From positions 128,872 through 192,871 of the forward strand of contig DATCDV010000004.1 of the NCBI GenBank assembly GCA_036510495.1: DNA of 64,000 nt. The letters are read 5' to 3'. Shown here piece after piece: positions 4,639-5,385 of the stretch (its first letter is position 1; every line of letters begins with the position of its first letter). A program made the position numbers and the translations under genes. Origin of the DNA: Solirubrobacteraceae bacterium (GTDB lineage Bacteria > Actinomycetota > Thermoleophilia > Solirubrobacterales > Solirubrobacteraceae). Below the pieces are notes generated by a model. The model did no database searches, was not told where the DNA came from, and saw only the letters and a program-made list of their open reading frames with translations.

Positions 4639-4645
4639 TGCCAAG

Positions 4646-4670
4646 AACCATCCGATGGTTGTAGTACAAT
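4646..4670 (+). promoter_or_regulatory. Putative promoter of the tRNA-like RNA: TACAAT -10 box preceded by a 6-bp inverted repeat (possible operator)
   Basis: TACAAT at 4665-4670, 10 nt before the cloverleaf; AACCAT-ccg-ATGGTT at 4646-4660; no good -35. Confidence 0.5.
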
Positions 4671-4680
4671 TGTCTGCGAC

Positions 4681-4771
4681 GGCGGGTGTTGCGTCGCGGT
4701 CGACGTGAACGATTGTCAATCGGGAATTCGGGTAGCTCCCGGATGGAGTTCGACTCTCCCGCCCGCCGCCA
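4681..4771 (+). tRNA. Non-canonical tRNA-Sec-like (8/4, allo-tRNA-type) gene with GTC anticodon and encoded CCA
   Basis: Acceptor GGCGGGTG/CGCCCGCC (8 bp); D stem GCGTCG/CGACGT (6 bp) with CGGT loop; anticodon loop TTGTCAA; 6-bp variable arm; T stem GGAG/CTCC (4 bp) with TTCGACT loop; discriminator G then CCA. The anticodon stem has only 3 WC pairs. Confidence 0.8.
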
Positions 4772-4777
4772 ACAAAG

Positions 4778-4916
4778 CTGCTGGACCCGGTCTTGACAGA
4801 GTTTGCAATTGTCACGCGCTCGCGGGATAGCTACCCGTCTTGTGTCAGGCCGGGTTCGCAGGTTCCCTGGTATTCTGTGTGACATTGACAATCGTTCGGA
4901 GGTAGCTCCTCCACAC
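4778..4916 (+). ncRNA. Structured RNA continuing 3' of the tRNA-like element (two further hairpin-pair modules)
   Basis: About 19-bp stem 4778-4798/4843-4861 enclosing two hairpins; second unit 4877-4916; 4884-4897 is the exact reverse complement of 4707-4720; three TAGCT-loop hairpins. Confidence 0.6.
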
Positions 4917-4920
4917 CCAC

Positions 4921-4951
4921 ACTCGACCCGCTCCGGCGGGTCGAGTTGTTT
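4921..4951 (+). terminator. Intrinsic terminator-like hairpin immediately upstream of the MazG-like ORF
   Basis: Perfect 11-bp stem ACTCGACCCGC-tccg-GCGGGTCGAGT followed by TGTTT. Confidence 0.65.
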
Positions 4952-4959
4952 CAGAAGCC

Positions 4960-5286
4960 ATGGATCTATCTGAGTATCAACGCGAATCGCGTCGTACGGC
5001 CGAGTATCCCCGAGAGGCGTGGCTTGCGTACCCCGCGCTAGGGCTCGCGGGCGAGGCGGGCGAGGTGGCCGAGCATGTCAAGAAGGCGATCCGCGACGAC
5101 GCCGGCAAGGTCAGCGACGAGCGCCGCGCGGCGATGTCAAAGGAGCTTGGCGATGTGCTCTGGTATGTCGCTCAGCTAGCCACGGAGCTTGGCCTCGACT
5201 TGAACGAGATTGCCGGCCAGAACCTGGAGAAGCTTTTCTCCCGCCAGCAACGAGGTGTGCTCTCGGGCAGCGGCGACGATCGCTAG
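4960..5286 (+). CDS. MazG-like nucleoside triphosphate pyrophosphohydrolase (single domain)
   Basis: LGLAGEAGEVAEHVKK and KELGDVLWY (EXXE...EXGD) motifs. Confidence 0.9.
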   Translation: MDLSEYQRESRRTAEYPREAWLAYPALGLAGEAGEVAEHVKKAIRDDAGKVSDERRAAMSKELGDVLWYVAQLATELGLDLNEIAGQNLEKLFSRQQRGVLSGSGDDR

Positions 5287-5385
5287 ACGTTCTCTGGGCT
5301 GCGCGATACTGCGTCTTCGCTCCCTTGTGTGCTGAGCACACTGCGGTCGCTGCATCCTTGTCTCGCTTGCCCAGAGAACGTCTAG
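5283..5385. repeat. REP/MITE-like palindromic element, copy 1, between convergent mazG-like and hflX genes
   Basis: 17-bp perfect flanking IR (5283-5299/5369-5385); 69-nt core matches the reverse complement of 33495-33577 at 59/69 positions. Confidence 0.8.

Follow-up and report, generated by a model that had tools for sequence, protein, structure and literature searches.

The spacer of 321 nucleotides (nt) that separates gatD from a small gene for a MazG-type enzyme in a Solirubrobacteraceae genome accommodates two short RNA genes, and it is this pair, its relatives and its surroundings that we describe here. The window analysed, meaning the whole stretch of 64 kb, stems from a genome of 3.43 Mb in 60 contigs that is 94% complete and whose nearest relatives are soil metagenome-assembled genomes labelled Solirubrobacterales/Solirubrobacteraceae. 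The gene order at the locus is murT, gatD, the 321-nt spacer, the MazG open reading frame (ORF), a 103-nt element and the convergent hflX. Gene 1 of the spacer specifies an RNA in the shape of a tRNA, and gene 2, located about 110 nt 3' of gene 1, is predicted to specify a short RNA antisense to it. We consider it probable that the spacer is an autonomous RNA pair, in which an RNA of the 8/4 tRNA-Sec/allo-tRNA type (tRNA-Sec being the selenocysteine tRNA) is matched by a private, co-evolving antisense RNA. The features of the spacer are as follows.

4646 to 4660, no strand: 6-bp inverted repeat AACCAT-CCG-ATGGTT, particular to this genome
4665 to 4670, plus strand: putative -10 box TACAAT (P1) of the tRNA-like gene, 10 nt 5' of its first base
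4681 to 4771, plus strand: tRNA-like RNA, 91 nt, called 'tRNA-Asp(gtc)' by ARAGORN and folded into a cloverleaf by RNAfold
4684 to 4689, plus strand: candidate target site 2 on the tRNA-like RNA, GGGUGU, in the acceptor 5' strand, paired with ACACCC (4913-4918) in the minimum free energy cofold
4707 to 4720, plus strand: target site 1 on the tRNA-like RNA, GAACGAUUGUCAAU, a perfect 14-nt complement of 4884-4897
4775 to 4863, plus strand: spacer domain of an outer stem and two hairpins, z-score -4.05
4868 to 4876, plus strand: putative extended -10 box TGG-TATTCT (P2) of the small RNA
4884 to 4952, plus strand: antisense small RNA, about 65-70 nt, predicted from conserved architecture, cognate pairing and G·U asymmetry
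4884 to 4897, plus strand: small-RNA seed, the 14-nt perfect complement of 4707-4720
4898 to 4912, plus strand: small-RNA hairpin 1, GGAGG-UAGCU-CCUCC
4913 to 4918, plus strand: small-RNA linker ACACCC, complement of 4684-4689
4921 to 4946, plus strand: predicted small-RNA terminator hairpin, followed by UGUUUC

The elements that a preliminary description of this DNA had listed between gatD and hflX were all found in place by sequence inspection, ARAGORN, RNAfold and Pfam. They include the 6-bp inverted repeat (AACCAT 4646-4651, ATGGTT 4655-4660) beside TACAAT at 4665-4670, a perfect 11-bp hairpin (4921-4931/4936-4946) with a 4-nt loop that ends 13 nt 5' of the ATG at 4960, a 108-amino-acid MazG-like ORF that matches PF03819 and has no obvious Shine-Dalgarno sequence, and a hairpin at the MazG stop codon, which is a perfect 17-bp inverted repeat (5283-5299/5369-5385). 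Four features had gone unlisted there, namely the P2 box (4868-4876), the 14-nt match of 4707-4720 to 4884-4897, the shorter match of 4684-4689 to 4913-4918, and the conserved three-way junction at 4775-4863. It is the connections drawn between these elements that require revision.

The tRNA-like RNA has an acceptor stem of 8 bp, a T stem of 4 bp, a D stem of 6 bp with a CGGU loop and a variable arm of 7 bp with a UAGCU loop, and its discriminator base G73 is followed by an encoded CCA. A covariance model, R1, was built from six homologues. On 36 homologues 96.9% of the cells of the cloverleaf are paired, as opposed to 41-51% when the alignment is slid as a control, and 21 of the 30 pairs are compensatory, a result equalled by none of 500 shuffles. 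The acceptor and T helices are 98.9% and 99.3% paired, respectively, and compensatory changes occur in all five helices and across three families, with the D-stem and variable-arm helices both covarying. Furthermore, the GG of the D loop and the UUCGA of the T loop are invariant amongst the homologues, which implies that the contacts of the tRNA L-shape have been retained. The tRNA-like fold is real. The anticodon arm is the exception to this pattern; only its three outer pairs are conserved and covary, and in 14 of the 36 homologues the inner pair is not formed. In this genome the anticodon stem consists of no more than three Watson-Crick pairs (CGA/UCG), the next three positions being G·A/A·G purine-purine mismatches, and the 'anticodon' loop reads UUGUCAA with GUC at 4715-4717. 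The 7-nt loop is anticodon-like in most members (U33, purine 37), and its triplet varies even between near relatives, in which GUC, GAC, GCC and GAU are found.

The Rfam model of tRNA-Sec (RF01852) scores the tRNA-like RNA at 41.7 bits against a gathering score of 47. The ordinary tRNA-Ser genes of this genome reach about the same score and hence the match is not specific; on these grounds, and because the loop carries GUC and no UCA, identity as a tRNA-Sec was rejected. The Rfam model finds no tRNA-Sec above threshold anywhere in this genome, and a normal tRNA-Asp(GUC) is present elsewhere in it. Bacterial tRNA-Sec resembles the tRNA-like RNA in its 8-bp acceptor stem, its 6-bp D stem with a 4-nt loop, its long variable arm and G73, but has a 5-bp T stem and UCA where the tRNA-like RNA has a 4-bp T stem and GUC. 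Weaker matches to R1, of 96 nt, are genuine tRNA-Sec genes with UCA and were used as controls; those of the same order differ in appearance and lack an antisense partner. The closest known likeness is to the (8/4) allo-tRNAs (Mukai et al. 2017, Nucleic Acids Res 45:2776, PMC5389517; review PMC7609411), which share the 8-bp acceptor and 4-bp T stem, the long D stem with a tetraloop, the long variable arm and G73, the latter features being identity marks of the serine type. GUC is one of the three predominant non-serine 'anticodons' of the allo-tRNAs, as it is the triplet here (PMC5389517). In contrast to the long, regular anticodon stem of the allo-tRNAs, that of the tRNA-like RNA is reduced to its three Watson-Crick pairs and the purine-purine mismatches. 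Allo-tRNAs have been described from Clostridia, Proteobacteria and Acidobacteria (PMC5389517), and the tRNA-like RNA is from Actinomycetota (Solirubrobacterales). Those tested in Escherichia coli insert serine, and some of them alanine, at stop and non-serine codons. The original paper suspected that some members are regulatory RNAs rather than translators (PMC5389517); together with the review it reports toxin-antitoxin neighbourhoods and possible regulatory roles, and no complementary partner RNA (PMC5389517, PMC7609411).

Simple consensus scans of 4400-5600 returned no match to a sigma-70 promoter or a canonical terminator, so for our promoter and terminator assignments we rely on conservation and on TANNNT boxes of the actinobacterial type. 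P1 is kept at the same distance from the tRNA-like gene in related loci, as TACAAT, TACGAT, TATGGT or TACAGT. The preliminary description had proposed an operator and promoter at this position; the TACAAT box is indeed conserved, whereas the 6-bp inverted repeat is absent from 13 related loci and was rejected as an operator. The stretch 4665-4680, which comprises P1 and the bases up to the start of the tRNA-like RNA, is GTACAATTGTCTGCGAC, which contains the palindrome ACAATTGT and is near-invariant in the clade; the 5' leader of the tRNA-like RNA would consequently amount to a few bases at most. A LexA/Cheo-box (GAAC-N4-GUCA) and a PafBC-type promoter (TTGTCA) were considered and dropped owing to misfits of spacing and consensus and a lack of conservation between genomes.

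The small RNA is recognised by an architecture that recurs from locus to locus. A TANNNT box is followed after 4-8 nt by a stretch of 12-23 nt complementary to positions ~25-42 of the locus's own tRNA-like RNA, then by a short hairpin, a (U)UCACCC or ACACCC linker, and a GC hairpin of the form GRCCCGC-N4-GCGGGYC with a U-rich tail. In 22 cognate loci 4-8 nt separate the TANNNT box, which in many cases has TGN ahead of it, from the start of complementarity, and in homologous loci the unit begins 14-160 nt 3' of the tRNA-like gene. This architecture is common to 20 of the 23 loci inspected; two of them, G007 and G017b, have no hairpin 1. P2 sits between the tRNA-like gene and the hairpin at 4921-4946, and this hairpin is therefore predicted to end a second transcript that is separate from the tRNA-like RNA. 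The single RNA-plus-terminator unit of the preliminary description does not hold in this form, given that the tRNA-like RNA has a promoter box of its own and P2 divides it from the hairpin. An Rfam search at E<=10 over 4500-5500 returned the sub-threshold tRNA-Sec only, and no match for the small RNA or the spacer.

The evidence that joins the two RNAs is the complementarity between the small-RNA seed and target site 1, which spans the linker, 5' half and loop of the anticodon arm and whose DNA, within this arm, reads GAACGATTGTCAAT. The sequences that pair are wholly different from genome to genome, yet each is matched to its own partner. Cognate duplexes have a median length of 15 bp (range 9-23, n=22), compared to a mean of 9.4 bp for non-cognate combinations and 7-11 bp for twelve genuine tRNA-Sec genes of the same order that served as controls. 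When the 22 possible partners are ranked by duplex energy, the cognate small RNA comes first for 19 of the 22 tRNA-like RNAs (-33.7 vs -21.9 kcal/mol). The changes can be followed base by base at the middle position of the loop, which is U, A or C in near relatives and faces A, U or G in the small RNA, G standing opposite C in C-G pairs and once opposite U in a U·G wobble. If G·U is admitted, 21 of the 23 duplexes become longer, with a combined gain of 92 bp, while admitting A·C, which is what G·U amounts to on the opposite strand, extends just 6 of 23, by 13 bp. This bias of G·U over A·C points to pairing of RNAs made from the annotated strand.

A second contact is predicted between the small-RNA linker and the acceptor 5' strand (site 2). 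The variable triplets of this site change in step amongst relatives (AAG/CUU, AAA/UUU, UAG/CUA, UUG/CAA and CAG/CUG), and so does the core, as in GGGCGA/UCGCCC (within AGGGCGA/UCGCCCU) and CGUGAAG/CUUCACG. Paired variants in relatives comprise GGGUGAAG/CUUCACCC, AGGGUGAAAUG/CGUUUCACCCU and GGGUUGAAGU/GCUUCAACCU, and furthermore GGGUGUAG/CUACACCC, GGGUGUUG/CAACACCC and CGGGUGCAG/CUGCACCCG. In an anchored test the variable triplet is fully paired in 7 of 20 loci (permutation p ~0.004), and we regard the site 2 contact as moderately supported. The cofold of this genome's pair reaches -86.5 kcal/mol as against -74.2 for the separate folds, and together the two RNAs are predicted to form a four-way junction in which nt 1-14 of the small RNA lie on nt 27-40 of the tRNA-like RNA, the D arm and small-RNA hairpin 1 persist, and the acceptor and anticodon stems are opened. 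A kissing contact between the loops of the variable arm and of hairpin 1 was left as weak (cognate mean 2.9 nt, non-cognate 2.3); in the closest clade the loops change without compensation. In some lineages the two loops show complementarity over 5 nt, AGUCA/UGACU in G167 (locus L031), CGAAG/CUUCG in G069 (L043) and, by eye, AACCA/UGGUU in G126 (L042), which taken together hint at such a contact.

The R1 model detects the tRNA-like gene in at least 17 of 201 sampled Solirubrobacterales genomes, which belong to three families and sometimes hold two to four copies each; of 24 additional genomes of the genus, 5 contain it. In this genome the module is single-copy. Its neighbours are unrelated and include GroEL, an ammonium transporter (Amt)/MsrA, TrpE|TrpG, ProB, a CPBP protease and an ImmA-type peptidase, and the downstream ORF is on the opposite strand in 13 of the 18 loci with a callable one. 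As the neighbours are unrelated, the module is autonomous and not dedicated to MazG. At one locus of another family (L042 in G126) the module is flanked by GatD and a PilB-type ATPase; it is directly 3' of a gatD that ends in ...RRAAGV*, as in the window, and it is the ATPase, not MazG, that lies downstream. The placement of the module next to gatD may be ancient. Tandem tRNA-like copies a few hundred bases apart occur at L037 in G087 (1501-1592 and 1812-1888), and tandem copies are also present at G175:C1:1570596-1571103. In the genomes with several modules (G017, G194 and G175) the seeds differ, as expected of orthogonal pairs.

Between the two RNA genes lies a structured spacer domain. One of its hairpins, with AAUUGUCAC, resembles the anticodon loop, and the other, GGG-AUAGCUA-CCC, repeats the UAGC loop motif. 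The three-way junction is kept in 11 members of the clade with 13 of 27 pairs compensatory; other families do not have the spacer, the -10 box of their small RNA abutting the tRNA-like gene. By eye, one of the spacer loops is complementary to the anticodon loop over 4-6 nt in 11 of 14 loci, and in this genome the two loops have a central U·U mismatch. The spacer probably serves the tRNA-like transcript as its 3' trailer or as a terminator; it perhaps acts as an anti-loop in cis, and it may be a relic of a duplicated arm.

Several observations weigh against an autonomous RNA pair and have to be set beside this evidence. The pair counts come from an alignment that was fitted to the model, which favours structure, though the margin is large, and the sequences are kin by descent, so that the statistics overstate their independence. 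One genome, G120, has no partner within 300 nt downstream of its tRNA-like gene, and in G149, L107 and L115 the pairing is only gapped or short. At site 2 the run lengths barely separate cognate from non-cognate combinations (7.4 vs 7.0) because the acceptor 5' strand is conserved, and in this genome the site comprises 6 bp only. Conversely, G003 and G023 keep a small-RNA-like leader before MazG and have no tRNA-like gene genome-wide at E<=1e-4, from which it follows that the small-RNA element can persist without its partner. Finally, the transcription starts, the terminator, any processing and the pairing in vivo are deduced from sequence.

The autonomous pair could work as follows. The 5' end of the small RNA would pair with the anticodon arm of the tRNA-like RNA while the ACACCC/UUCACCC linker would pair with its acceptor 5' strand, thereby giving the four-way junction. 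The most likely consequence is that the small RNA would hold the tRNA-like RNA in a form that can be neither charged, nor bound by EF-Tu, nor used on the ribosome; alternatively, the two RNAs might titrate each other. The 'anticodon' loop would then be an address, quick to evolve, by which each pair stays private. As to an RNA-only toxin-antitoxin pair, in which free tRNA-like RNA would damage the cell and the small RNA would counteract it, the evidence extends to the pairing alone.

Antisense RNA pairs that recognise each other through loops or seeds include CopA/CopT, RNA I/RNA II and Sok/hok. The proposed small RNA is akin to the regulators of such CopA/CopT-type pairs in being short, separately promoted and separately terminated, in reading the loop of its partner with a single-stranded 5' end, and in a fast-evolving specificity that separates paralogous pairs. 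The target of those systems is an mRNA or a replication primer, whereas here it is a tRNA-shaped non-coding RNA; moreover, the genes described here are in tandem and do not overlap, and the target is predicted to be rearranged into a four-way junction through contacts at two sites. T-box leaders likewise read a tRNA-shaped partner at two points, the anticodon loop and a place close to the acceptor end. Their pairing extends over 3-4 nt and their second contact is the NCCA end, as opposed to 12-23 bp and the acceptor 5' strand; unlike a T-box, the small RNA has no Rfam T-box match and the regulated gene is usually not downstream. Full-text literature searches found no published tRNA/antisense pair of this kind.

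The gene that follows the module in this genome encodes a single-domain MazG-type enzyme and its history bears directly on the interpretation of the locus. The ORF (4960-5286) shares the domain and the ExxE...ExxD metal-binding motif of single-domain MazG proteins (PF03819), which include YpjD, dCTP pyrophosphatase 1 and integron MazG-type proteins. Read from the translation, the motif is intact as E32xxE35...E62xxD65, following the ExxE(12-28)ExxD pattern. Matches in the PDB, to MazG-like proteins and dCTP pyrophosphatase 1, are weak (E about 1e-3); the likeness to solved structures is distant only, and the tie to the RNA module is one of adjacency alone. MazG orthologues occur in 25 of 121 genomes of the family, and the comparison that follows concerns the 80 closest loci (82-95% identity). 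The tRNA-like gene lies 190-330 nt upstream of MazG in 13 of these 80, and a small-RNA-like leader alone is present in a further 8. The remaining 59 have neither element; their start codon is instead preceded at 5-8 nt by a TAGGAT/TACGAT box, mostly right after gatD, which is the layout of leaderless actinobacterial mRNAs. The family-wide MazG sample gives a similar picture.

MazG is an ordinary neighbour of gatD, upstream of which the module was inserted in a sub-clade, and their adjacency is an accident of insertion rather than a designed cassette of sensor and enzyme. The insertion between gatD and MazG would have displaced the leaderless-type promoter of MazG in this sub-clade. In this genome the 13 nt from the hairpin to the MazG ATG contain no TANNNT box, and MazG is for this reason most likely expressed by read-through of the small-RNA terminator from P2. 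The two MazG copies of G008 both keep a box after the hairpin (TAAAGT or TAGAGT). A leader and terminator precede MazG with no tRNA-like gene nearby at L093, L095, L096, L124, L141, L153, L154 and L167; these orphan leaders look like small-RNA promoters that have been co-opted as expression signals for MazG.

Of the competing explanations, the one that survives best reverses the roles, such that the small RNA is the effector, or the leader and promoter of MazG, and the tRNA-like RNA is its sponge or decoy. There is a precedent in that spacers of enterobacterial tRNA precursors act as sponges of small RNAs. The occurrence of the small-RNA element without a tRNA-like gene in 8 of the 80 MazG loci, and in G003 and G023 genome-wide, speaks for this reversal, as does the fact that the small RNA provides the only visible MazG promoter here. 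Set against this, neither the seed nor its complement has another copy in this genome, the free variation of the seed amongst relatives is hard to square with conserved mRNA targets, and the strong constraint on the tRNA shape and on the nucleotides of its tertiary contacts would be needless for a mere sponge. We consider the reversal doubtful.

A more elaborate proposal builds on the autonomous pair and turns it into a protein-free programmable control unit with four parts: a tRNA-shaped RNA charged with serine, an off-switch in the form of the small RNA, an anticodon lock, and the co-option of MazG. Charging with serine would be expected from the long variable arm and G73, and the charged RNA would enter translation or another pathway that depends on aminoacyl-tRNA. 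The small RNA would unzip two stems, that of the acceptor and that of the anticodon, paralogous pairs would be kept orthogonal by an 'anticodon' that is free to evolve, and the small-RNA unit would act as MazG promoter and leaky terminator, so that MazG output would track the state of the RNA pair. It is unlikely that all of these hold jointly.

The preliminary description had favoured a different arrangement, in which the tRNA-like RNA and the hairpin form a cis-acting, T-box- or attenuator-like leader that gates read-through into MazG and thereby ties a tRNA mimic to nucleotide or alarmone turnover. The order of tRNA-like gene, hairpin and MazG on one strand, found in this genome and in 12 of the 80 closest MazG loci, is what such a leader would require; moreover, no promoter box lies between hairpin and ATG here, and the hairpin with its UUGUUU tail resembles a leaky terminator. 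On the other hand, most loci of the tRNA-like gene have neither MazG nor any downstream gene on the same strand, such a leader is lacking at 59 of the 80 closest MazG loci, and the conserved P2 intervenes between the tRNA-like gene and the hairpin. Rfam at E<=10 gives no T-box or riboswitch match, the terminator forms in every fold, with no antiterminator seen although no search was aimed at one, and in G008 leaderless-type boxes follow the hairpin. We judge this leader to be very unlikely. The expected co-occurrence of RNA and MazG breaks down at those 59 loci, and a sensor dedicated to MazG is contradicted by homologues adjoining unrelated genes and by the presence of the tRNA-like gene at no more than 13 of 80 MazG loci. 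Of the two observations named beforehand as speaking against such a leader, homologous RNAs do occur next to unrelated genes, while a MazG promoter after the hairpin exists in G008 but not here. The part of the earlier idea that endures is read-through into MazG, which is likely to proceed from the small-RNA promoter; control of it by a tRNA-like leader does not. The other reading offered there, a small stress or anti-phage module, gained no support from the analysis and met no evidence against it.

The complementary stretches might alternatively be a DNA inverted repeat, which would either bound an invertible promoter segment or form a recombination site. A perfect 14-bp inverted repeat does flank 163 bp that contain P2, and recombination too would keep the repeats matched in every genome. 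Such a repeat predicts no strand bias, yet the mismatches are overwhelmingly G·U on the sense strand and not A·C (21 vs 6 pairs extended), and it is on this asymmetry that a DNA inversion switch was rejected. Every locus examined has an intact tRNA-like gene in one and the same orientation, the adjacent genes that were scanned include no recombinase, and site 2, which is not palindromic, fits an antiparallel RNA duplex; a DNA repeat is highly improbable. It is just as hard to credit that the tRNA-like gene is a decaying tRNA-Ser/tRNA-Sec pseudogene and the downstream similarity a functionless relic of local duplication, for although the anticodon stem here has only three Watson-Crick pairs, the sub-threshold tRNA-Sec score is shared by normal tRNA-Ser genes and degenerate copies of arm motifs occur in the spacer, the helices show compensatory changes (five helices, three families), the promoters are conserved, complementarity is kept despite full replacement of the sequence, and the divergence of the homologues excludes recent copies of one sequence.

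The genes and the repeat that surround the RNA module are listed below.

2504 to 3898: murT, just 5' of gatD
3889 to 4638, plus strand: gatD, glutaminase subunit of lipid II isoglutaminyl synthase (Pfam GATase_3, E 1.8e-37)
4960 to 5286, plus strand: single-domain MazG-type nucleoside triphosphate pyrophosphohydrolase, 108 amino acids (Pfam PF03819, E 3.9e-12, 46.7 bits, cut-off 22)
5283 to 5385, no strand: interspersed repeat resembling repetitive extragenic palindromes or miniature inverted-repeat transposable elements (REP/MITE-like), with a 17-bp terminal inverted repeat
5389 to 6636, minus strand: hflX, the convergent right neighbour (Pfam GTP-bdg_N, GTP-bdg_M, MMR_HSR1)

The left neighbour gatD is outside the RNA module, and the REP/MITE-like repeat is unrelated to it. 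The latter has 21 further BLAST matches (75-87% identity) on 14 contigs of this genome, and another copy, G000:C4:162387-162452, falls within the window at about 33516-33581. Other unusual tRNA calls were encountered in the same genome. That at G000:C18:271703-271799 is 97 nt long. Its acceptor stem measures 7 bp, its loop CUUUCAA contains UUC (Glu), and its D region is enlarged by an insertion of about 20 nt; besides this call, this genome shows tRNA-Glu(CUC) only. Two near-identical tRNA-Phe-like genes of 69 nt (G000:C2:203739-203807 and G000:C43:11495-11563) have an aberrant D region and a TANNNT box directly upstream, and one of them follows a normal tRNA-Phe at a distance of 170 nt. For the ARAGORN calls on C41 (92 nt) and C18 (97 nt) and the 69-nt calls on C2 and C43, no antisense partner came to light.

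If the autonomous RNA pair is borne out, a dedicated antisense RNA, co-evolving with its target and gripping its anticodon arm as well as its acceptor strand, would be the first RNA-only control to be described for a tRNA-shaped RNA, and the allo-tRNA class would thereby be extended to the Actinomycetota. The locus offers an experimental handle on this question, combining two short RNAs, natural compensatory mutants and a downstream MazG reporter.

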